From Elsinoe ampelina (taxonomy: Eukaryota): a stretch of DNA of 64,000 bases. The stretch is from the NCBI GenBank assembly GCA_010093995.1, contig ML992515.1, forward strand, positions 301,533 through 365,532, in the 5' to 3' direction. Shown in pieces: positions 3,877-56,250 of the stretch (positions are counted from its first letter, which is position 1; each line of letters starts with the position of its first letter). The translations under genes and the position numbers were made by a program. Under the pieces are notes generated by a model. That model did not search any database and was not told the origin of the DNA. It was given only the letters and a program-made list of their open reading frames with translations.

Positions 3877-5076
3877 TCATCTCCCTGCTCCCCCCTTCCT
3901 CCCCCTCTCCCTCCCCTCCACAACAGAATACCCCCAAATCCCCCCCAACGCCACGCCCACCCCCCACGCCGCCCTCCCATCCCCCATCCCCCCACCCAAC
4001 CCCCACCCCACGCCCACGACCCCGACCGTCTTCGCGTGCCCAACGACCGTACTCCCCACCGGCCCCGCCCCCGCCACGATGGCGAACTGGGAGAGATTAA
4101 TCCCCACCGCGCACAGTCCACTGACGCCGATCAGGAGCCATTGCCGGGACGACACGGCGGCGAAGGGGGGGAGGGCGTCGATCCAGGGGACGAGCCAGAG
4201 GAGGAGGAGGCCGCCGAGGAGGGACTGGCGGTGGAGGAGCTGCGTGGGGGATTGGTGGAGGGAGAGCGTGAAGTGGGAGATGAAGAGGGTGTAGATGGAG
4301 CTTGCTAGGACGCCGGTCAGGGCGAACAAGGCGCCGAGGGGGGAGGTGGTGCGGGATGTGGTCGGGGAGGGTGGGGTTGGGCTGGATGAGGTGCTGCTCC
4401 AGGGACGGTAGACGAAGAGGCCTTGTGGGAGGGAGGGGTCGGGTTGAGCGGAGGGAGAGGGTCGGACGTCGAAGTAGGTCAGCCAGGCGACGCCGAGGCA
4501 GACTGGGATTAAGGCGAGGATGGCGGGACGGGAGAGGGAGCGGGAGTAGAGGAGGTAGTTGAGGATGGCGGTGCAGGGGGTTAGGAGGACGCGGACGGTT
4601 TGGTAGAAGGTGATGGAGGAGTGGGCGAGGGAGAGATTGGGGAGGAGGACGTTGAGGGACATGGCGATCGCGACGGGGAGGAGGGAGCGGAGTGGTGGAG
4701 AGGGGGAGCGAGTGAAGAGGCCGATGCGGGAATTGGAGCAGATGTGGAGGGTGATATGAGTGAGGAGGAAGTGGTAGGCGGCGAAGAGGAGTTGGGTTCG
4801 CGCGAGGAGAGGGTCGGACAGGAGGAGCTTGTTGGTGAAGACCTTGGGGATTTAGCTTGGGTCTAGAAGGTGTGAGGGAGAACAAACGATGGCGATAGTC
4901 GCGAGAATGTTGAGAGCTATCCAAAACACGAGCTTGCCAGTGGTGGATGGGGTTGTGGTGGTTTGCTGAAGAGGTACGGTCCCAATATCCGGCTCCTTCT
5001 CCAGTGCTAGGAGTGGCCCAGATTCGAGATCAGAGCCGGTATAGATCTCGGTCTCGCTCGATTTGCGGTCGTCCAT
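3877..5076 (-). CDS. Nucleotide-sugar transporter (triose-phosphate translocator / SLC35E-like); exons 5076-4888, 4842-3877
   Basis: Spliced translation WIALNILATIAIVFTNK...FAAYHF...NVLLPNLSLAHSSITFYQ...RVLLTP...INLSQFAIVAGAGPVGSTVVGHAKT. Multi-TM TPT/NST pattern. Intron gtttgt..ccccaag. Confidence 0.85.
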
Positions 5077-5344
5077 AGTGACAATATTGATTGTGGTTGT
5101 GTGAGACTTCCGGACGACTCAGACGTACTGATCGCAGGCCTCATCACATACTTGGAGAGGTCGAAGGAGGCTCCCTCATCTCAGCCAGGAATCTGTCGAG
5201 GCAAGGGACGCCACATTCCACAATCTTGCCAAAGGTCTTTTGCGTTGATGAAAATTCGAGCGAGAGGGTGACATGTCAGGGGAAGGTACCAGAAGAGAAT
5301 TCATTCGTCAGTATAGAAGCGGTTGTGAACGCTCGGCGTCAGTC

Positions 5345-6553
5345 TCAAGCCTCGACAGTGAACCATCCAGACCACAGGGACGACAAGTTCCATGCACCGT
5401 CATTCTTCGAAGCACCAGTACCGGCAGGAGTCTCGAGCTTCAGTATCTCGTCTTGCTGCCTCTCCTCGATACTATCTGGACTTGGTGGCTCTGGGAATGG
5501 CGTGAGTCTGCTCTCGATGTCTCCCCACCATTCTGATCCGAATCGCTTGTACCAGTCCACAGTGACGCGGAGGCCGTCCTCAAAGCTCGTCTTCTGCTGC
5601 CAACCAAGCTTGTTGAGGCGAGATCCGTCGACAGCGTAGCGGTGGTCATTGAATGGTCTGTCCTGAACGTGCGTGATATACTTCTGCCGTTGATCGCCTT
5701 CACAATCATGCCCAAAGAGCTGCAGAAGCTTCGTGCACAATTCCAGGTTCGAAATCTCGTCTCTAGAACCCACGTTGTAGATGTGCCCCTCCTCGCCCTT
5801 GTGCAGGATGGTATCAAAAGCATCTGCTGCGTCTCCTGCGTACAAATATCGTCTTGTGTTTGTTCCACTCCCGTGGAGCGTCAAAGGCATCCCTCTTTGT
5901 AGAAGAAGAGAGAATTTGGGAATAATCTTCTCTGGATACTGATGTGGTCCGTAGACATTGTTGCTGCGAACGATGATGGCTGGAAGGCCCCAGGACTTGC
6001 GGTAGGCATGGACTTGCTGCTCGGCTGCAGCCTTTGACGCTGCGTAAGGGTTGGTGGGCTCGAGCAGAGCATTCTCGAACAAATCACTCTGATCGTCTCT
6101 GACTTCGCCGTACACTTCGTCCGTTGAGACATGGATGAACTTTTTGACCCGGCCATATTTCCGGACACACTCCAACATCATGTGAGTTCCGCAGACATTC
6201 GTGTATGTGAACTCCAGGGAGTTTCCGAAGGAAAGATCGACATGAGACTGTGCTGCGAAATGCATGACGGTGTCCACTCGGTAGGTTCGGAGGCAATCAA
6301 GTACATCTTGAGCGTTTGTGATGTCACCTTTGTAGAAGGAGAAGTTTGGGCGACCTGCAAGCTGAGCATTGTTGTGCCAGGTAGCACAGTAGTCAAGCTT
6401 GTCAAAGGAGATGATGTGGTACGTCGGGTACGTGATTGTCAGGTGCCTAGCTACCCATGATCCAATGAAGCCGGCAGCTCCAGTGATCATGATGCTTTTC
6501 GTCTCGTCGTTTGAGTCGTGACGGGACTGGCCCAGGAGTAGTGGTGCCTCCAT
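5345..6553 (-). CDS. UDP-glucose 4,6-dehydratase (RmlB/RHM N-terminal type), first step of NDP-rhamnose synthesis
   Basis: Single-exon 402 aa extended SDR: ITGAAGFIG, DKLDYC, HFAAQSHVDLSFGNS, HVSTDEVYG, PTNPYAASK, NNVYGPHQYPEKIIPKF, DRPFNDHRY. Confidence 0.95.
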   Translation of the reverse strand: MEAPLLLGQSRHDSNDETKSIMITGAAGFIGSWVARHLTITYPTYHIISFDKLDYCATWHNNAQLAGRPNFSFYKGDITNAQDVLDCLRTYRVDTVMHFAAQSHVDLSFGNSLEFTYTNVCGTHMMLECVRKYGRVKKFIHVSTDEVYGEVRDDQSDLFENALLEPTNPYAASKAAAEQQVHAYRKSWGLPAIIVRSNNVYGPHQYPEKIIPKFSLLLQRGMPLTLHGSGTNTRRYLYAGDAADAFDTILHKGEEGHIYNVGSRDEISNLELCTKLLQLFGHDCEGDQRQKYITHVQDRPFNDHRYAVDGSRLNKLGWQQKTSFEDGLRVTVDWYKRFGSEWWGDIESRLTPFPEPPSPDSIEERQQDEILKLETPAGTGASKNDGAWNLSSLWSGWFTVEA

Positions 6554-7155
6554 CCATATTGGTTGATGGGGCAGAAGAGCTGGCCCGATTAGCTGAAGTC
6601 TTCATCACGGTCTGAGGCCTGCTCACACTCTTCGTCCGGGTTTTCGACGAATGGCATGGCGGGAGATGATCCTCGATGAGTCCAGAGGGAATGGATGGAC
6701 TTGGATGCAGAGAGTCATCCTGAGAGTGTTGCACCTGTCGAATACCAAGGTTTAAGATGCCATGCAAGGGATTCAAGCTGGAATGTCTTTTTGAGGGGAT
6801 GATGCGCTCCCTTGCCGCCTTGATACCATGTCGCGATCTCGTCACTCGGTGGATCTGTCCCTTGATTGCCATGATGCACCTGTGAAGGACGGAGAACGTC
6901 TTGGTAGAGAGCATGAGTGATTACCAGCCTCGACCGTTCATTCTTGTCCTGCAGCCTTTGCGATGATGATGCCGCCTCTGGAGGTGAGCCTTGCATGAAA
7001 TGAATCATACCATCTGTAAGTGCAAGTGAGATCCACACCTTGATGGCGACCTTGCGTGATTTGCTTGGCCATCTGATAGCTATATCATGAGCCTTTATTT
7101 CCATCCCCTGATTTTCAGGAGAGAATTCTGGTCTTGCATCTCTCCAATTGTCAAC

Positions 7156-8104
7156 ATGAGTTCGGCGTCTAATATTTTCCTCATTTGGGGCGGTCGTGGA
7201 TGGATCGCTGGCCACCTCAAGACCCTCCTCCAGAAACAAGGCAAGGCCGTCCTGACCACAACAGTACGAATGGAGGACCGCGTAGCAGTCACTAAGACCC
7301 TCGACGAGATCAAGCCGACCTGGGTTCTCAACTGCGCCGGCTGCACTGGCCGTCCTAACGTGGACTGGTGCGAAGACAACAAGCAAGAGACCGTTCGCAC
7401 GAACGTGACCGGGACCCTTACCCTCGCCGACGTTTGCTACCTCAAAGGCATCCACATGACCAATTTTGCAACCGGCTGTGCGTCGTCATCCTAGATCTTC
7501 CTTCTCTCTTTGACTTCTGCTAGGCATTTACCAATACGATGACGAGCACCCCATGGGCGGGAAGACCTTCACCGAGACCTCGCCGGCCAACTTCGAAGGC
7601 TCATTCTACTCCTTCACCAAATCGCGGGCCGAGCAGTTATTGTCGCCTTACAACAATGTGCTCACTCTTCGCCTCCGTATGCCCGTGTCGGACGACTTGC
7701 ATCCGCGCAACTTTGTGACCAAAATCACAAAGTATGAGCGTGTCGTCGACATCCCGAACAGCAACTCGATCCTGTATGACCTCTTGCCCTGCGCCATCAT
7801 CCTCGCCGAGAACGGTACTACGGGGGTCTACAATTTTACCAATCCAGGAGCCATCTCACATAACGAGGTCTTGACCATGTTCAGGGATATCGTCAGACCG
7901 GACTTTGTGTGGAAGAATTTTTCCTTGGAAGAGCAGAGCAAGATCCTCAAGGCGGGCAGGAGCAATTGCGAGCTTGACGCCACCAAATTGGTTGAGGAGA
8001 TGAAGAGATATCACGTTGAGATACCAGAGATCCATGAGGCGTGTAGGAGGTGTTTCGAGAGAATGGCGGCTGGGGAGAGGCAGGCTGTTGTCGGTGCCGC
8101 TTAA
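7156..8104 (+). CDS. UDP-4-keto-6-deoxyglucose 3,5-epimerase/4-reductase (NRS/ER); exons 7156-7477, 7524-8104
   Basis: FLIWGGRGWIAG, GCTGRPNVDWCEDNKQET, ATGCIYQYD (across intron gtgcgt..ctag), ANFEGSFYSFTK, LRLRMPVSDDLHPRNFVTKI, YNFTNPGAISHNEVL, RSNCELD. Confidence 0.95.
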
Positions 8105-8223
8105 AATAGTCTCTTGAACACGATGTAGCATGTCAGTCTCCGGAATGCAATCTCAGCTCTTGTCTGGCTTCGCTCGTGCGAACATGCTGTAGTGACAAGA
8201 ATGCTTGTATTTTCTGTCGTCTA

Positions 8224-9510
8224 TCAATCGCCGTAAAGCCGTCTGTGCTCCTGCTTGGGTAAAACTGGTCGTCTCAGAGCCTTCAAGCAGTATCCATTAA
8301 CTGGCTTGGAATCGTCACACTTGCAATTACATCCTACGCCGTCGTCATCCGGACAATGCTGAAATGGTGGATGCTTGTAGCCGATGTCCTGGAAGTAATG
8401 GATCTGCTCAGCTTCCAGGAACATGGCCACTGCTAAGCTGTGCACTGGCGCATCGCCCCATCGTTCTAAGTGTGTCCCTCCTAGGTTGTCTAAATGCTTG
8501 AAGTAGTCTCTGTATGCTTTCGATCTGAAAACGTCAAGATCTGCAATTTCGAAATTGGACCAGAAATGGCAGGAGCTCCATCCATCGCCATAGCGATCCT
8601 TGCTCGGCCAGAATGGCAGGATGAAGCGCCGGAACGGCCACGGAGCCCAGCTCGACTCGAACATGGCGTTCCACATGCCGCGATCCGGTATACCGTGTTT
8701 TTCCTTGAAGTCCGTCGTTGCCCTGAAGAGGGTAGGCACCAGAGATCCGACCTCCCATAGCGCGACAGTGTAGCCATATTTCTGGTTTCTTGAAGCCATC
8801 TCGTGAAAGGGATCGTAGGTGATATCACAGCTGAAGGTGACGCCGGGCTCGACTCGCCAGTACCACTTGTAGGGCTCAAGAGCAGGATGGTCGTAGAAGA
8901 AGCCAGAGTTGAAACGGCACATGTGGTGGTAGCTTGCTTTCTGGACGTGTGTTCCCTCGACGAATTCCTGGGTCATGCCGTTGGCGTAGCGGTCCCATGT
9001 CGACATGGCTTTGGTTTTTGCCTTCTTGTCGAAGCGATCAGGCCAGTCCCACATCTCTGGAGGGATGTTGGCGAACGTGACATTTGTGTTCGGGCTCAAT
9101 GCTGCTTGGATCTTTGTCTTGAAGGCTTTCTCGAAGGGTTGGTCATTCAGGAAGACCCATGGATAGTTGAAATGTTTGTTGAAGCGGGCTTCCAGATTGC
9201 GAACTGTCTTTGCGGCGGTATAGGCCTCGCTGTTACGTGCCAGCATGAACAGGGCAGCGGACTGGCGGGGAGTGTTGGAGGCATAGGAAGAGACATCCTG
9301 GCAGGTGGTGTAGAAGGGAGGATCCAGGGGCTTTGGTGGATCGGGTATAGGATGTGCGGTCTGAGCATGATGGTAGGGTTCTAGTATGAACAGGACGAAT
9401 ACAGAGAGTATTATGACAAGACCTGCTCGTCGTCTGCGGCGGAAGAGCACAGGAGGAACCAGGATGCTGGGAATGTTGAGCATGTTGCATGCTCGAGAGC
9501 GATATGTCAT
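8224..9510 (-). CDS. Glycosyltransferase family 15 (KRE2/MNT1/KTR family), type II Golgi membrane protein; start ATG 9510 or 9483
   Basis: Basic stretch plus TM (RRRRRAGLVIILSVFVLFIL), LARNSE, RFNKHFNYPWVFLND, SYHHMCRFNSGFFY, YWRVEP, CHFWSNFEIADL, ERWGDAPVHSLA. Confidence 0.92.
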   Translation of the reverse strand: MTYRSRACNMLNIPSILVPPVLFRRRRRAGLVIILSVFVLFILEPYHHAQTAHPIPDPPKPLDPPFYTTCQDVSSYASNTPRQSAALFMLARNSEAYTAAKTVRNLEARFNKHFNYPWVFLNDQPFEKAFKTKIQAALSPNTNVTFANIPPEMWDWPDRFDKKAKTKAMSTWDRYANGMTQEFVEGTHVQKASYHHMCRFNSGFFYDHPALEPYKWYWRVEPGVTFSCDITYDPFHEMASRNQKYGYTVALWEVGSLVPTLFRATTDFKEKHGIPDRGMWNAMFESSWAPWPFRRFILPFWPSKDRYGDGWSSCHFWSNFEIADLDVFRSKAYRDYFKHLDNLGGTHLERWGDAPVHSLAVAMFLEAEQIHYFQDIGYKHPPFQHCPDDDGVGCNCKCDDSKPVNGYCLKALRRPVLPKQEHRRLYGD

Positions 9511-12401: not shown

Positions 12402-15400
12402 CTAGTCGTCCTCGCTTTGCACCATGCTATCGTCGCCATTCCTTGCCGCAGGGGTATTTTTCTTGCCTCCCAGCTTCAGTGTCATCCTTGGCTGTGGCGT
12501 GCCTGCCATTGACATGGGTCTTGAAGCACTGTCGCCGATGCTGGAGGCACCCTCATCCGCGTCGACATAATTGGGATGCTTCTCAATCTCCTCCTTGATC
12601 TTGCGAAGCGCTGTTTGCTGAGGATTATTAGTAACACTTACAGATTGTTAGGGTCGAATGACATACCTCGATCAAGTTTGCATCCCGATACAGCACACTG
12701 CCATCCTCGTTATACTGCCTGCAGTTGTTACACAAGGTAACAATATCGGACTTGAACTGGCTCAGACTCTGGTACTGCTTCTTGTTGATCTTCTTGCCGA
12801 TACCATCCATGCATATTGGATTCTTGATGAGCTGGTAATAATCGGGGTAAGCCTGTCGAGGAGGCAGCTCGATGAATGGATCAATGATGCCGCGAGGACC
12901 AAGACTTGGGTCGGCAGATGGCTCTTCAAGCTCGTTGAGAGAGTCATGTACAGCGTCAAGGATCTCCTGAAGTATGGCACGCTGTTCCGGTGACAAAGTC
13001 TCGGCAGCTTTGCTCTGCCTCCCACGCTTCTTCGGCGGAGCGACCTCAACATCCATCTCTTCGGCTTTGCGCTTCTCCGCCTTGGGCTTTCGGCCACGCT
13101 TCTTGGGCATTTGCGGTTCTTCCGAGCTTTCCCTAGAAGCTGGAGGAGGAGTGTTCTTGTCCTTGTTGCCATTGCGTCTGGCGATCCTCGCCTCCTTACG
13201 GGCGATGGCATCTTCAATGGTGTCGTCGTCAGCATCAACAGCCTCAAGCCATTGTTCTTCTGTAAGACCATCGTCGTATTTGACACGAGTCCTCTCACGG
13301 GCGCCTCGTCCGATTGGCACCTCAATTTCCTCAACCACCGGCTCGTCTTCATGCAGGTAGATGTCAGGCAGCTCGTCCTCGCCAAGAAGACGGCCCTTCT
13401 GGTTTTTACCGCCATATTGCTGATTCTTGATTCGGTCCTTGTCCATTTGTTGGAATATCTCGAGCTCTTTGTCGGATCGCATCATCAACAGGTTGAGATC
13501 ATCGTCATCCATCTCATCCTGCTCGAGTGCTTCAGCAGCTTCGGCGGACTCCAACATGACACGCAGCATCTCATCTCGCTCCTCGTTGGTAGACTTGTTG
13601 TCGAATTTTCCAGCTTGAATGACCTTGCCGTCCATGTCGAGCTTAAAGTTCGCACGTTCCAAAATCTTCTCTTCGACAGAGTTGGAACTGATCAGACGCA
13701 GAATGCGAACTTCATTCTTCTGACCGATACGATGAGCACGATCTTGGGCTTGCAAATCTTGATGAGGATTCCAATCCGAGTCGTAGATGATGACTGTGTC
13801 GGCAGTCTGCAGATTTAGACCAAGACCGCCGGCACGAGTTGAGAGCAAGAAACAGAAGTATTCGGATCCAGGAGCGTTGAATATCTTGAGAAGCTCTGAA
13901 CGATCATCGGCTTTGGTGCTACCGTCCAGACGCAAGTACTTGACGCCACGAAGACGTAGGAAATCTTCCATGATGTTCATAATCTGTGTCATTTGGAAGA
14001 ACATCAAGACTCTGTGACCAGTGGCCTGAAACTTGGGAAGGACACGATCAAGCAGCTCGAACTTGCCAGCAGTCCTCCAGAGCAAGTCGTTGGTACCTCG
14101 GCCCGGGTTGATCTGATCCTCGACCTCTTCAAAGACGAAGGGATGGTTACAGAGCTTCCTCAGTTGCATCAGCATGTTGCTGAGACCACGCATGCTTGTC
14201 TTGCCACCCTTTCCGTCACTAACGGTAAGCCTATTATTGGTGACGAGCTGCTTGTAGAGTTTGGCCTGGAGTGCGGAAAAGTTGCACTTGATGACACGTT
14301 CTTGTTTATCGGGCAGATCCTTTTCGACATCTTTCTTGAGACGACGCAGCAAGAACGGACGAAGCACCTTGTGAAGACGACGAATGACGAGAAGCTGTTC
14401 TTCTTCTGTCAACTCCATCTTGTCTTGACCACCAGTGTTGGCGAAAGGTGTATTGAACCATTCATCGAAAGATTTGACAGATTTGAAGATGGTAGGAAGG
14501 ACGAAATTTAGAAGCGCCCAGAGCTCAGGTAAGCTGTTTTGCAGAGGTGTACCAGTCAAGATCAGGCGGTACCTAGTGTTGTAGTACTGTGTGATGGTGC
14601 TACTAAGCTTCGAGTTGGCATTCTTCATCCTGTGACCTTCGTCGACAATCATGTGTAGCCACTTGACCTTGGCTAAAATGGGACGATCCTTGATGATGAA
14701 TTCGTATGTGGTAAGAAGGACTTGGAAGTCACCGTAGCGGATCTGGTTTTGAGCAGTCTTGCGCTGGTTTGGAGGGCCCTTGTAGACAATCTTCTTGACC
14801 GAAGGTGCCCATTTGTCAAACTCGTTGTTCCAATTCGTAAGAGTACTCAACGGGACAATGACCAGGTATGGACCAGGTTGGCGCTTCTTCTCGATAAGAT
14901 AGGTGACTAACGAAATGGTCTGAATGGTCTTGCCGAGACCCATCTCGTCTGCAAGGATACCGTTGAGGTTGTTGTTGTAGAGCGAAATCATCCACTGGAG
15001 ACCCTTGATTTGGTACTCCTTGAGCTGTCCGCCAACCAGATTGGTTGATTGAGCCTTGACTTCTTCTTTGACGCGATGAGCCACTTCGTAGTAGTCGATC
15101 TTCTTGACGCCGTCTTCATCCTCGCTGCCCTCTTCGATCTCGCTCTCTGATTCGTCTTCGCCGCCATAACGACGAATGGTACCGCGTTGTTGTTCCTTGA
15201 CCGATGCCGCGAGCTGCTTCAAGAAACCATCGGTCTGCTTGAGAAGATGTGAGATACGACTGTCCTTGGCTTGTCCGAGAAGTTTGAGGTAGGTCTCTTC
15301 GTCGTTGGCCTTGAGAGCTTGCAGACGTTGCTTTGCAGTCCTTTCGATACGTTTCTGTTCGTCCTTTTCGATCTGGCTGTGCGTGGCTTGCATGGCACGT

Positions 15401-16652
15401 CCAAGTCGTTGAATGCGGGCCTTGCGTTCCTGAGCAGCGTTTTTGAGTGCGTCGGCGTGCTGCATGGCAGATCTCAGTAGGTCGTTCTCTTGCTTCCTCT
15501 TCTTGCTCTCGTGTTCATGTCTTTGTTCGCGTTCATATTTCTCAGTCATGCGAGCTTCGCGGGCATTCTGCTTCTTGAGTCGGCGGTACAGGTTGCGATT
15601 GGCGGTGGTGGCGAGGGTATCAGCTTGGATCATCTCGCGTCCGACAGCCTCACGAAGTGCACGCTGTTTGCCGAGAAGCTTGATCATCTTGTACTCGATC
15701 AAGGATCGAAGCTTGACTTTACCATCGTCGCCAATAGTGTCTGAGCGTGTATCCCAGGATCCAATGTTCGCCGGAAGCTCTTCAAGCTCTTTCTCTCTCG
15801 TCTTGAGACGGTTGTACAAGATCGCCTCCCTGTTGTGGTCCCGTCTGTCTCGTGCCTGATATGGATCGATGCCAAGAGCCATGATCGAGGGAATATAAGG
15901 TCGTTGACTTCGGAAGCGGTGCTTTGCGTATGAGAGCTTGTCAGGGTACAGACTGTATGGGTCCTGAAGGAAGAGAAAGGATGACCCCTGTGTGGCATCG
16001 CTCGAGGCAGCTCCATTGGTACTTGACTGGTGCGCGTCTGCAGCCTTGACAGGCGACTCTTCGAGTGCTTTGTTGGCTGATTTGAGAGCCTCGGGTACCG
16101 ATGAAGCTTGCTTCTTCTGAAAGAGTTGTTCTTGAATGTCTTGCGGGACGGGCATGTTTCGTTGGAGCATATTAAACGCCTTGATCTGCGACCGTAGCAT
16201 CTGTGTCTGATCTTTCGACAGGACATTATCCCCAGTGACAGGTGAAGCATTGGCGGATGTGGGTGCTTTATTGTTGGGTGTGCCATTAGTGACCGCTTGG
16301 GGAGTTGGTGTGTTGTTCGTGACAGGACTGCCATTCGGTATGCCTGTTGAATGCGCGCCATTCTGTTGAGGTGTACCTTGCTGTGCGGCTTGTTGTTGTC
16401 GCATTGCTGCTTGTCTTTGCATCTCCTGCTTTTGCTTGAACATGGTCAAGATCTTGCGACATCTGAGAAGTTCAGGATCATTCTCAGGTGTGCCTGATGC
16501 TTTTAATCGATTGTAGGTCTGATATTGTCAGCCATCAAATTTGATTCAATAAGCATGTGGAAGCATACTGCAAATATCTGACCGAGGGCTTCTTTGGTCC
16601 AGACTTGCTGTGGCATGCCTGGTTGGCCAGGTGTTTGCTGGACCGAAGCCAT
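12402..16652 (-). CDS. STH1: SNF2-family chromatin-remodelling ATPase, RSC catalytic subunit Sth1/Snf21 type; exons 16652-16569, 16518-12667, 12617-12402
   Basis: QLQ-like (LRSQIKAFNMLQRNMPVP), HSA region, GILADEMGLGKT, DEGH, LTGTPLQN, LSTRAGGLGLNLQTAD, QAQDRAHRIGQ, SnAC, AT-hooks (KKRGR), bromodomain (YPDYYQLIKNPI..NCRQYN). Last exon ends QSEDD* at TAG 12404-12402. Confidence 0.93.
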
Positions 16653-17306: not shown

Positions 17307-19444
17307 CTAGCCCTGTATCGAAAGGGAAGTTTGATGTGGTTGATCTGTACGTGAGGTCGCAGTATGCTCTGCTGAGATGATAGAGCTCACCGCCGTCGTC
17401 GACTCTTCCTTTGCATGGTACCCATTCATCAGTGGCTTCTGATCTGCAACGTCAGATCCGATACTGCTAGGCAAAGCAGAGTCGTGCAAGGACTCGGATG
17501 AATCCAAGACGGGGTGTGTCTGCTGACTTGTGGCTTGTTTGACATCTGTCGGTGTCCAGTCCATGGTGCCGGAATCCTGTTGATGCTTCTCCTCGGTCTG
17601 TTCTTGTTTGGCAATCGTCGAGTCTGATGTGACCTTGGACGATCTATTGTCTTGCAACTTGACAAGTTCTTTCTTTTTGTCGACCTGAAGTGATGGAACC
17701 CTCAGCTTCACTATCAGACTGGACGGCTCATCACCCAATGAATCGTCACTGTCGCCGCCGAGCTCGTCCGTCCCATCGTCACCAAAATCATCGCGACCAC
17801 CATCCTCCTCATTGTCGGCACTGTTCCAGCCAGCACTAGACGCTGCATCATCTTCATCGCTCATTTCATCGACCTCATTGTATGTGTCGATGTGTTTGCG
17901 CTTCTTTGGAATTCCGTTGGTACCATTGGCGGCACTCCGAGATGCTCGACGTGTAGGTCCTGACAGTTCGGATCCGTCAAGGTCATCATCCGCTAGTGAG
18001 TCGGCATTCATGACCTGATTGCTGAGTAGGGATTCGCCGTACATGCCACCCTCGCGAGCTCTGACCTGTCTACCACTTGCTGTGACTACAGGGCCTCGAG
18101 CTTCCGCTGGTGTAGATCGATCTGAATGACGACCTGACCTTCGTACAGAGAAGTCGGATTCCTCAAAGTCATCTTCATCATCGTAGGTGTACCGCTGACG
18201 TTTGCCTCTGGTACGACCTTCATAAAGAGAATAGCCCAGTTCGGGCCGTGCGAACTGTGCACGGCGCATCTGTCGATAATCTCGTCGCTTGCGTTTCTGA
18301 ACATGATCAGCAATATTCTTTTCATCAGCTTTCTCTAATGCTCTTACCTCCTCCGTCGCCTCGAATCGTGGTATAGCTGACATGATCTTGGACGACAATC
18401 GCCTCGCCGCTTGTGTGGTATCCTTTTGTTCCAGCCTATCGGCAATGGCTTTGATCTCATCGATGGTCCCTGCCATGCTCCACCATTTACTCTCTTCCGC
18501 TGCCTTTGGTGTCTCTCGATAGAGCCTGAAGCTTGTGTCGTCTTGTCCTTCTATAAGCCAGTATCTTCTCTTGTCGCCATCCACGCCCCAAGGTTGTACC
18601 GAGAGCGGTTGGTTCAGATCGTCCTCATGACGCGATTGCTTGTAGGCATCTTTGATGATCTGTGACACGGCTTCGGAGGTTGTGAGGGACCACAAGACGA
18701 GGGTGCGGAGGAGTGTGAGCTAACGTGAGTCAGAAAGGAGTAACGCAAGAGTCCGGTATTCGCGATCTTACTCTTTCAGAAGGAGACATGGTGTTAAAGT
18801 TGCGACTGCCGGAAAGAGGGTTCTGGCCGTTCCACGAGACTGGCCATTGAGCACGCTGCGACCCAATGGCCTCCTCGAGAGCTCGACCATGATGACCGCT
18901 TCTATGATTCGTCAGAGATGTCTTAAATGCGCTTGTTCGCCGCGCTCCTGGGTTAATATGAGGCTTACTCCACTGGCTTCTTGCGATTGAGGACCAATCC
19001 GAGTAATGCGCATAACAGATTCTCAACTTGAGGCGAAGCTGTCGGACCCTCGACACCTCTCTCCAGATCCTGTGGGCCATAGTGAGGAAGCTTGGGTGGG
19101 AAAGCGGCAGAGAATCGGGACCGGAACATGACCAGGAACTATGGAACCAGATGTGTTAGCTGAATGTTCTTCGCAAGAAGTGTAGACCCTGAATCAAGAC
19201 GGTGACGGATAAGTATTACAGCTATATCAGAGTTGTCCGCGATTGTATCATCGTGAACAGGAGAAGGTGATCGGGGAGGTCGCGGTGGTGATGCAGGAGG
19301 CTCAGGAGCTTTCTTCGCAGCTTTCTTCTTTGGGGCTGGTTTCGATCTCGCTTTGGTGAATATTGGTGCCAACTTCATGCGCTCGTCATCGCTGGGAGGC
19401 GCCGACGAAAGCGCCGAGGACAACGAGGAAGAATCGTCGTCCAT
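17307..19444 (-). CDS. WHIM-motif chromatin protein (DDT/WHIM, ISWI accessory-subunit-like); exons 19444-19220, 19138-18969, 18901-18772, 18719-18348, 18296-17307
   Basis: Spliced ORF: DNSDIAFLVMFRSRF, LLCALLGLVLNRKK, FNTMSPSERLTLLRTLVLWSL (WHIM1-like), QPWGVDGDKRRYWLIEG (WHIM2-like), SLYEGRTRGKR, acidic low-complexity tail. Confidence 0.75.
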
Positions 19445-22490: not shown

Positions 22491-23365
22491 NNNNNNNNNN
22501 NNNNNNNNNNNNNNNNNNNNNNNNNNNNNNNNNNNNNNNNNNNNNNNNNNNNNNNNNNNNNNNNNNNNNNNNNNNNNNNNNNNNNNNNNNNNNNNNNNNN
22601 NNNNNNNNNNNNNNNNNNNNNNNNNNNNNNNNNNNNNNNNNNNNNNNNNNNNNNNNNNNNNNNNNNNNNNNNNNNNNNNNNNNNNNNNNNNNNNNNNNNN
22701 NNNNNNNNNNNNNNNNNNNNNNNNNNNNNNNNNNNNNNNNNNNNNNNNNNNNNNNNNNNNNNNNNNNNNNNNNNNNNNNNNNNNNNNNNNNNNNNNNNNN
22801 NNNNNNNNNNNNNNNNNNNNNNNNNNNNNNNNNNNNNNNNNNNNNNNNNNNNNNNNNNNNNNNNNNNNNNNNNNNNNNNNNNNNNNNNNNNNNNNNNNNN
22901 NNNNNNNNNNNNNNNNNNNNNNNNNNNNNNNNNNNNNNNNNNNNNNNNNNNNNNNNNNNNNNNNNNNNNNNNNNNNNNNNNNNNNNNNNNNNNNNNNNNN
23001 NNNNNNNNNNNNNNNNNNNNNNNNNNNNNNNNNNNNNNNNNNNNNNNNNNNNNNNNNNNNNNNNNNNNNNNNNNNNNNNNNNNNNNNNNNNNNNNNNNNN
23101 NNNNNNNNNNNNNNNNNNNNNNNNNNNNNNNNNNNNNNNNNNNNNNNNNNNNNNNNNNNNNNNNNNNNNNNNNNNNNNNNNNNNNNNNNNNNNNNNNNNN
23201 NNNNNNNNNNNNNNNNNNNNNNNNNNNNNNNNNNNNNNNNNNNNNNNNNNNNNNNNNNNNNNNNNNNNNNNNNNNNNNNNNNNNNNNNNNNNNNNNNNNN
23301 NNNNNNNNNNNNNNNNNNNNNNNNNNNNNNNNNNNNNNNNNNNNNNNNNNNNNNNNNNNNNNNNN
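22491..23365. other. Assembly gap (N run)
   Basis: Run of N. Confidence 1.
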
Positions 23366-55059: not shown

Positions 55060-56250
55060 GGTTAATATTAAATATATATTAGCCTAATATAGTAATTAGA
55101 GCTAGTATAGGCTTAAAGATATTAGAGAAGAGTAAAAAATACTACCGATAGTATAGAATAAGTATAGAGATATTTTTCTTCCTTAAAGAGTATCCCTTTA
55201 TATATTTCTCTATTAATCTCTATTTCTAGCTTTAGTTAGTAGTACTACAAATTTTAATCTCCTTCTTAACCTTAACCTTAACTTCTTCTACCTTAATTTT
55301 ACCTCTATCTAGCTAGTCTAGTAGCTTCTTATCGATTAGTAGTTCTTCTTTCTAAANNNNNNNNNNNNNNNNNNNNNNNNNNNNNNNNNNNNNNNNNNNN
55401 NNNNNNNNNNNNNNNNNNNNNNNNNNNNNNNNNNNNNNNNNNNNNNNNNNNNNNNNNNNNNNNNNNNNNNNNNNNNNNNNNNNNNNNNNNNNNNNNNNNN
55501 NNNNNNNNNNNNNNNNNNNNNNNNNNNNNNNNNNNNNNNNNNNNNNNNNNNNNNNNNNNNNNNNNNNNNNNNNNNNNNNNNNNNNNNNNNNNNNNNNNNN
55601 NNNNNNNNNNNNNNNNNNNNNNNNNNNNNNNNNNNNNNNNNNNNNNNNNNNNNNNNNNNNNNNNNNNNNNNNNNNNNNNNNNNNNNNNNNNNNNNNNNNN
55701 NNNNNNNNNNNNNNNNNNNNNNNNNNNNNNNNNNNNNNNNNNNNNNNNNNNNNNNNNNNNNNNNNNNNNNNNNNNNNNNNNNNNNNNNNNNNNNNNTAGC
55801 CTATACCTAAATATCTTTACCTCCTTATAAGCTTTAAAATAGTTATCTATAACTTTAGAGTTAGCTATTATAAGGCTAGCTTTAGTCTTCTCCTATCTAG
55901 AGTTATTCTTTAGTATTTACTAGTACCTTAAGGTATTCTTATAAGTGTCAATTTTAAGCTTTAATTTACTTTTATTAAGCCTCTTAGCTTAAGTACTAGT
56001 AACCTTCTTTACTACCTTAGTTACTCTAGTCTAAGCCTCTAGCCGAAAGACTCCTCTAGTATAGCTACTAGTGTTAAAAGAGTTAAGGAGGGAGTATAGA
56101 GCAACCTCTACTATTTCTTTAGTCTAATTAATATTAGTAGGCTACTTCCCCTTTACTAGTAATTAAGATAGAGAAGGTATCTAAAGCACCTCCGATTAAG
56201 TTAGTATAGCAGTAGTAATCTCTGCTACTTTATTAAGGGTGTTAGAGGCT
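55060..56250 (-). pseudogene. Harbinger second ORF, Myb/SANT-like DNA-binding protein (RIP-degenerate, spans gap; limits approximate)
   Basis: Minus-strand de-RIP reading near 56050-55840: SFR(P)EA(W)TRV...RL(D)KSKLK(S)KIDTYK...(W).ILK(D)NS(G)(W)E, then an acidic tract. Convergent with the transposase, as in two-ORF PIF/Harbinger elements. Confidence 0.6.
55357..55796. other. Assembly gap (N run)
   Basis: Run of N. Confidence 1.

Follow-up and report, generated by a model that had tools for sequence, protein, structure and literature searches.

Four neighbouring genes were analysed in a 64,000-nucleotide stretch of contig ML992515.1 of Elsinoe ampelina, referred to here as the window, and the locus is probably a module that makes UDP-L-rhamnose and imports it, with an ordinary Golgi mannosyltransferase gene lying alongside. 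The genes occupy 5.6 kb at positions 3877-9510 and encode a nucleotide-sugar transporter (NST), a UDP-glucose 4,6-dehydratase, a UDP-4-keto-6-deoxyglucose 3,5-epimerase/4-reductase (NRS/ER) and a type II glycosyltransferase of the GT15 (Kre2/Mnt1) family. The initial annotation of this DNA, made from the letters alone, had listed these four contiguous genes, and all were recovered at these positions with the identities it had given them. It had also read the locus as a rhamnosylation cluster with GT15 in its transferase slot, and on this point our results differ. In several fungal pathogens, surface glycans that contain rhamnose are important for virulence and for recognition by the immune system. 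Neither the route by which UDP-rhamnose enters the Golgi nor the enzymes that transfer rhamnose there are settled.

The two enzymes of UDP-rhamnose synthesis were identified from profile and structure matches. The dehydratase (5345..6657, minus strand, 421 aa, two exons) matched PF16363 with 232 bits and solved nucleoside diphosphate (NDP)-glucose 4,6-dehydratase structures with up to 273 bits. It was 100% identical to a protein recorded under the name E. ampelina and 58-73% identical to Pezizomycotina proteins, including 63% to one of Pyricularia oryzae, 67% to one of Sclerotiniaceae and values of 64-67% to others. The extended short-chain dehydrogenase/reductase profile together with orthology placed it among the fungal UDP-glucose 4,6-dehydratases, and orthology likewise suggests that it is specific for UDP rather than dTDP. 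NRS/ER (7156..8104, plus strand, 300 aa, two exons) matched RmlD_sub_bind with 47.9 bits over its first exon, and its second exon scored 202.5 bits against 4qqr ('3,5-epimerase/4-reductase', chain positions 116-276 of 301) and 143.9 bits against 7jid ('UDP-L-Rhamnose Synthase'). The protein, read across a predicted joining intron, matched solved NRS/ER or UDP-L-rhamnose synthase chains, which include plant and viral UDP-rhamnose synthase structures. These matches strongly support the view that the dehydratase and NRS/ER are orthologous to the two fungal enzymes that convert UDP-glucose, by way of UDP-4-keto-6-deoxyglucose, to UDP-beta-L-rhamnose, and they also support the identification made in the initial annotation. 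Both enzymes reportedly make UDP-rhamnose in Magnaporthe and Botrytis, in 2012 work attributed to Martinez et al. and cited in PMC5698552 and PMC4226871. The enzyme types of that pathway are identical to the two found in the window and the enzymes themselves show no difference; a linked transporter was not found described for it in the available passages of PMC5698552 and related passages. UDP-beta-L-rhamnose is the donor for fungal rhamnosylation according to an excerpt of PMC6556577.

The dehydratase and NRS/ER start codons face away from each other across a 498-bp spacer (6658..7155) that is presumably a shared promoter. The dehydratase is read from exons 6657-6627 and 6579-5348 with the stop at 5347-5345, and the spliced model equals database protein P0123 (421 aa). 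Its 47-nt intron (6626-6580) was seen as spliced joints in contigs of three public runs (X1, X2 and X3), with GT..AG borders on the minus strand. NRS/ER is read from exons 7156-7477 and 7524-8104, separated by a 46-nt GT..AG intron at 7478-7523. This splice is predicted from homology in both exons and from the reading frame, which is open only with the 46-nt intron removed.

The third gene of the proposed module, the NST (3877..5076, minus strand, 384 aa, two exons), is probably of the TPT/DMT type and is our candidate for a Golgi UDP-rhamnose importer. Its ATG lies 268 bp from the dehydratase stop. The model consists of exons 5076-4888 and 4842-3880 with the stop at 3879-3877, and the spliced product matched database protein P0256 (384 aa) letter for letter. 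The 45-nt GT..AG intron (4887-4843) was found as a spliced joint on the minus strand in one contig of run X2. Several hydrophobic segments were detected in a hydropathy scan, and the structure neighbours of the protein in the Atlas were TPT clusters with TM-scores of 0.71-0.72. Three orthologues (P0260, P0263 and P0266) scored 32.2, 35.6 and 46.1 bits against the Pfam TPT profile (PF03151), the latter two along the whole profile. Sources label the family SLC35E3-like or 'GDP-mannose transporter', the second being the UniRef name. No solved GDP-mannose transporter chain was among the matches to the NST (E up to 1) or to a profile of 26 family sequences (E up to 0.01), and only the CMP-sialic acid transporter was matched, weakly (E 0.0045-0.07). 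In these comparisons the 'GDP-mannose transporter' label is not backed by similarity. The closest functional parallel lies in plants. The Arabidopsis URGT family consists of Golgi UDP-rhamnose/UDP-galactose transporters (Rautengarten et al. 2014, as cited in an excerpt of PMC10013753) and probably shares with the NST the superfamily of TPT-type nucleotide-sugar transporters as well as the job proposed here, but the fungal family is assigned by gene neighbourhood and not by assay. Neither a fungal UDP-rhamnose transporter nor this cluster was found described in the literature searched (supplements excluded).

The NST also has some unusual sequence features. Its coding sequence (3877-4850) reaches a GC content of 0.69 at 4001-4500 and is strongly skewed between the strands, its codons being rich in C and T until the 3' end, which is rich in G. 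In the NST proteins of Elsinoe there is a loop insertion rich in Pro, Ser and Thr that the other orthologues lack. The NST also diverges faster than its neighbours, being 66% identical to its E. fawcettii counterpart as compared to 81% for the dehydratase and 79% for GT15.

The association of the NST with rhamnose synthesis is supported by gene neighbourhoods in other fungi. Comparison was possible in 13 species, and in 7 of them, drawn from the Myriangiales, Dothideales and Xylariales and therefore from two classes, the NST gene was next to that of the dehydratase. Consecutive numbers for the two genes were found in E. ampelina (KAF2219725/26), E. fawcettii (KAF4548124/25), Sphaceloma murrayae (PNS15563/64), E. 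australis (C1H76_5564/5563), Xylaria arbuscula (KAI1369070/71, and NPX13_g2201/g2202 in a second assembly), Xylariaceae sp. AK1471 (KAI3336748/49) and Aureobasidium subglaciale (KAI5207475/76). Other cases were less direct. The tags were five apart in Dothideomycetidae sp. 11243, and Rosellinia necatrix and Xylaria sp. FL1042 offered contigs of equal size for the two genes and nothing more. A second pair of A. subglaciale clusters (P0265 and P0132) was ambiguous, with contigs of unequal size and several members per cluster. In the Xylariales and Aureobasidium the pair occurred without a linked GT15 of the clade found in the window. By accession order the NST and the dehydratase behave as a conserved gene cluster. 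Because it recurs in other orders, the pairing of NST and dehydratase appears to be more than chance, and an adjacency held over two classes would be hard to explain without selection. A UDP-rhamnose module for making and importing, composed of the dehydratase, NRS/ER and the NST, is thus well supported by gene identity and gene order. The claim of the initial annotation that the transporter serves the pathway gained support from the immediate dehydratase neighbour, while its Golgi location and its UDP-rhamnose substrate are what we infer. On balance we lean slightly toward the conserved NST being the first fungal Golgi UDP-rhamnose importer.

The fourth gene, GT15 (8224..9510, minus strand), has a single exon and ends 119 bp from NRS/ER, the two stops being convergent. 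The exon runs from 9510 to 8227 with the stop at 8226-8224 and encodes 428 aa from the first ATG or 419 aa from an ATG at 9483, and 419 aa is also the size of this protein in E. fawcettii and E. batatas. The protein matched PF01793 with 303.8 bits (cut-off 25) over profile positions 50-325 of 325, and it matched the solved structures of Kre2p (1s4n, 251 bits), Aspergillus fumigatus Ktr4 (7boo, 250 bits) and ScKtr4p (5a07, 234 bits). A simple hydropathy scan detected a single N-terminal hydrophobic segment at residues 29-47 after an Arg run, as in a type II membrane protein. The donor site was mapped by aligning GT15 onto the contacts of the ScKtr4p-GDP-Mn complex listed in PMC4546622, and 122 relatives were compared. 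The guanine N1/N2 binders Asn172 and Asp173 of ScKtr4p correspond to N122 and D123, with Asn in 122 of 122 relatives and Asp in 101. The Mn ligands Glu262 and His411 correspond to E221 and H357 and were found in 119 and 122 of the 122, respectively. The Leu-x-Arg of the ribose/base pocket, the stacking Trp204 and Tyr235 (ScKtr4p numbering) were kept as well. Nothing in the donor site was peculiar to the Elsinoe proteins, and the distinctive loop before the HFWSNFE motif was common to the whole GT15 clade, including members that are not linked to rhamnose genes. As GT15 enzymes turn GDP-alpha-mannose into alpha-mannosides (PMC4546622), the family is retaining. The window GT15 is most likely a GDP-mannose-dependent alpha-mannosyltransferase. 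It shares family, fold signature, Mn ligands and GDP contacts with Kre2p/Mnt1p and Ktr4p of Saccharomyces cerevisiae and with A. fumigatus Ktr4, but it is about equally distant from all three and carries the loop of its own clade before HFWSNFE.

Trees were built from the 120 best named matches and from family representatives chosen at 50% identity. GT15 fell in a Pezizomycotina clade of 27 leaves (support 1.0), where its nearest group was the remaining Myriangiales (0.98), joined next by further Dothideomycetes together with lichen-forming fungi (0.93), roughly as taxonomy predicts. The separate clade of cluster-linked enzymes for which the initial annotation had suggested looking was not seen; the gene sits inside the Pezizomycotina-wide clade. 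Colletotrichum has a GT15 on each side of the split between this clade and its sister group, so the clade is one of several paralogues. The sister group holds proteins that sources label KTR5 or omh4-like. None of the three solved GT15 proteins falls in the clade, and to our knowledge no member of it has been characterised. A named subfamily could not be assigned from the structures, as two clade members and one sister-group protein were about equally far from 1s4n, 7boo and 5a07.

Three further observations concern GT15 genes and gene models. Position 9138, inside the coding region, is G in the window and A in runs X2-X4, which is probably a strain difference. A public protein that is 100% identical (P0003) is 336 aa long as compared to 419-428 aa for the open reading frame and 419-427 aa for its relatives, and the public gene model seems truncated. 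In Dothideomycetes sp. NU457 two genes of the clade (P0012 and P0249) have consecutive tags (1663t1 and 1664t1) and share one 90%-identity cluster, which looks like a recent tandem duplication.

Linkage of GT15 to the rhamnose genes was much narrower than that of the NST. As in the window, GT15 of E. fawcettii and of S. murrayae stood close to the dehydratase, two steps away by accession number, and a Logan contig of 54,339 nt apparently holds a 71%-identical GT15 together with a dehydratase, judging by equal contig size. Myriangium duriaei belongs to the same order, yet there the two accessions were 594 apart on a 4.2-Mb scaffold. In 15 of the 15 species outside the Myriangiales that had both proteins among the matches, GT15 and the dehydratase were on contigs of differing size. 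This count leaves out species represented by several assemblies or strains (Xylaria arbuscula, X. bambusicola, Neoarthrinium moseri and Stachybotrys chartarum) and those with an odd coincidence of contig size between species (Poronia punctata and Whalleya microplaca). GT15 was therefore linked only in Elsinoe and Sphaceloma, and on the numbering compared this arrangement is particular to the Elsinoaceae. Because the linkage was seen only in this family, the evidence that GT15 was placed there other than by chance is weak. A transferase slot as a general feature of such clusters, as the initial annotation had it, is not supported, and its neofunctionalised rhamnosyltransferase finds no footing in a protein that keeps all mappable GDP and Mn contacts bar one Tyr and belongs to a broad clade in the place that taxonomy predicts. 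What the annotation had named as fatal to its own proposal, a standard single-copy orthologue unlinked in related genomes, was nearly what we found: the orthologue is ordinary and unlinked in related genomes, although there are several paralogues and not a single copy. The GT15 part of the finding is probably ordinary.

In the arrangement that we favour, the dehydratase and NRS/ER, transcribed divergently from their common spacer, would convert UDP-glucose to UDP-beta-L-rhamnose in the cytosol. The NST, encoded directly downstream of the dehydratase, would reside in the Golgi or endoplasmic reticulum membrane and import cytosolic UDP-rhamnose by antiport, and other TPT-type nucleotide-sugar transporters act as antiporters. 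GT15 would be a type II enzyme of the Golgi that, with Mn and GDP-mannose as donor, attaches alpha-linked mannose with its configuration retained. Fungal rhamnoglycans carry alpha-L-rhamnose, and alpha-L-rhamnosides can be made from UDP-beta-L-rhamnose only with inversion. The rhamnosyltransferase would be expected to be an inverting enzyme encoded elsewhere than the window. A domain scan of the gene-rich parts of the window detected no further glycosyltransferase domain in 35 other open reading frames of at least 110 aa, and the rhamnosyltransferase that would use the imported UDP-rhamnose is not in the window.

Several observations weigh against this arrangement. Adjacency was read from consecutive accession or locus-tag numbers and from contig sizes, and not from DNA. 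The NST and dehydratase were on different scaffolds in Myriangium duriaei and on different contigs in Rhizina undulata. In E. batatas, the closest relative, the dehydratase (001330) and the NST (002021) were 691 tags apart on one 3.17-Mb contig, and either the numbering there is not positional or the cluster has been dispersed; the E. batatas proteins (P0243, P0244 and P0257, with GT15 tag 001860) are 86% to more than 90% identical to those of the window. The NST itself scored 29.5 bits against TPT, just under the cut-off of 30. Run contigs covering 7478-7523 read through the NRS/ER intron unspliced. On the side of GT15, the beta-phosphate contact Tyr229 of ScKtr4p is His, which is the sole change among the mappable GDP and Mn contacts (His in 61 and Tyr in 48 of the 122 relatives). 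Also, GT15 linkage persists between E. ampelina, E. fawcettii and S. murrayae at 68-79% protein identity, which allows for a local functional tie.

Such a tie would make the four genes one functional unit in Elsinoe, in which GT15 is an alpha-1,2-mannosyltransferase dedicated to making the mannan or O-glycan to which rhamnose is then added. The close accessions of E. fawcettii and S. murrayae and the 54,339-nt contig apparently holding both genes are consistent with this, as is the rhamnose-bearing alpha-1,2-mannobiose core of Sporothrix O-glycans described in an excerpt of PMC4226871. We consider it unlikely, as the linkage is limited to one family whose members may just still share gene order, is absent in Myriangium as well as in all 15 of the other species having both genes, and involves a gene that converges on NRS/ER, does not share its promoter and has no upstream 8-mer in common with the rest. 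Doubtful to a similar degree is a different cargo for the NST, namely GDP-mannose, UDP-glucose, UDP-galactose or UDP-4-keto-6-deoxyglucose. An excerpt of PMC10013753 states that sequence does not allow the substrate of a nucleotide-sugar transporter to be predicted, which also counts against our own assignment, and that plant UDP-rhamnose carriers move UDP-galactose as well. UDP-4-keto-6-deoxyglucose is toxic when it accumulates, according to a passage of PMC5698552, and its removal by the NST would fit. Set against these points, the conserved neighbour of the NST is the dehydratase of the rhamnose pathway even where GT15 is unlinked, the solved GDP-mannose transporter chains were not matched and the match to the CMP-sialic acid transporter was weak only.

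GT15 could also have switched its donor and become a rhamnosyltransferase that uses UDP-rhamnose. Adjacency is all that the locus offers for this, together with the fact that the Golgi rhamnosyltransferases of fungi are undefined. The Sporothrix schenckii proteins Rht1 and Rht2, which would use the product of this pathway, are proposed rhamnosyltransferases that were detected with a profile derived from plants; their domains are of the GT28_C and UDPGT types (GT-B) and not GT15 (excerpt of PMC9145935). No GT28_C or UDPGT-type domain was found in the window in domain scans of the cluster and of gene-rich open reading frames. A rhamnosyltransferase would be expected to show a donor site adapted to uridine and inverting chemistry, and in GT15 the guanine-reading Asn-Asp and the other GDP and Mn contacts were unchanged and the family is retaining. 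The active site has no Elsinoe-specific change, and the one distinctive loop is clade-wide. Starting from UDP-beta-L-rhamnose, a retaining enzyme would make beta-L-rhamnosides, and L-rhamnose belongs to the enantiomeric series opposite to that of D-mannose, as is established chemistry. Because the guanine site is unchanged, and because GT15 is retaining while alpha-L-rhamnosides need inversion, a donor switch is very unlikely. Equally remote is a self-contained rhamnosylation system in which the NST is the first fungal Golgi UDP-rhamnose importer and the Elsinoe GT15 accepts UDP-rhamnose to make an unusual cell-surface beta-L-rhamnoside.

Under the module reading of dehydratase, NRS/ER and NST, the transporter is a good candidate for the UDP-rhamnose importer of fungi, here in a grapevine pathogen. 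A transporter family that stands beside the first enzyme of the pathway in Dothideomycetes and Sordariomycetes would offer a concrete and cheaply testable candidate for the import step, and the NST could serve as a marker gene in co-occurrence searches for the missing Golgi rhamnosyltransferases.

Metagenomes were also searched with an alignment of 20 dehydratase sequences. Among the 80 loci kept, one was fungal-looking (L001, 67% identity, 2.2 kb) and the others were at most 52% identical; NRS/ER exon 2 matched 29 of the 80. The NST and GT15 gave no tblastn match to these 80 loci, which therefore yielded no fungal synteny. The three upstream regions of the cluster (the dehydratase-NRS/ER spacer and those of the NST and GT15) had no 8-mer in common. 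Three 7-mers were common to them, and as 0.6 were expected and shuffles gave a maximum of 5, this was not informative. In run X1 a single 5.4-kb contig covered 4165-9568, including all four genes and the spacers, with sequencing-adapter letters at each end. The dehydratase intron was removed in this contig and the transporter and NRS/ER introns were retained, and its assembly path may have combined spliced RNA with DNA or pre-mRNA.

The genes flanking the cluster are unrelated to it. On one side lies a PIGO/PIGG-type glycosylphosphatidylinositol ethanolamine-phosphate transferase (to 3617) and on the other an acyl-CoA dehydrogenase (from about 9688), and neither has a glycosyltransferase domain. 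Further along, the minus strand at 12631-16527 encodes a Snf2-family chromatin remodeller with HSA, SNF2, helicase C, SnAC and bromodomain. An open reading frame at 17310-18719 (470 aa, no Pfam match) was considered as a hidden glycosyltransferase and rejected, as its Atlas neighbours were WHIM1-type chromatin proteins with low recognition. From 22400 to 56000 the window holds a block of about 33 kb with a GC content of 0.27-0.39, as compared to about 0.52 elsewhere, and without an open reading frame of at least 110 aa. Two runs of N (22491-23365 and 55357-55796) flank this block, which looks like an AT-rich, repeat-degraded isochore beside a gene-rich arm.

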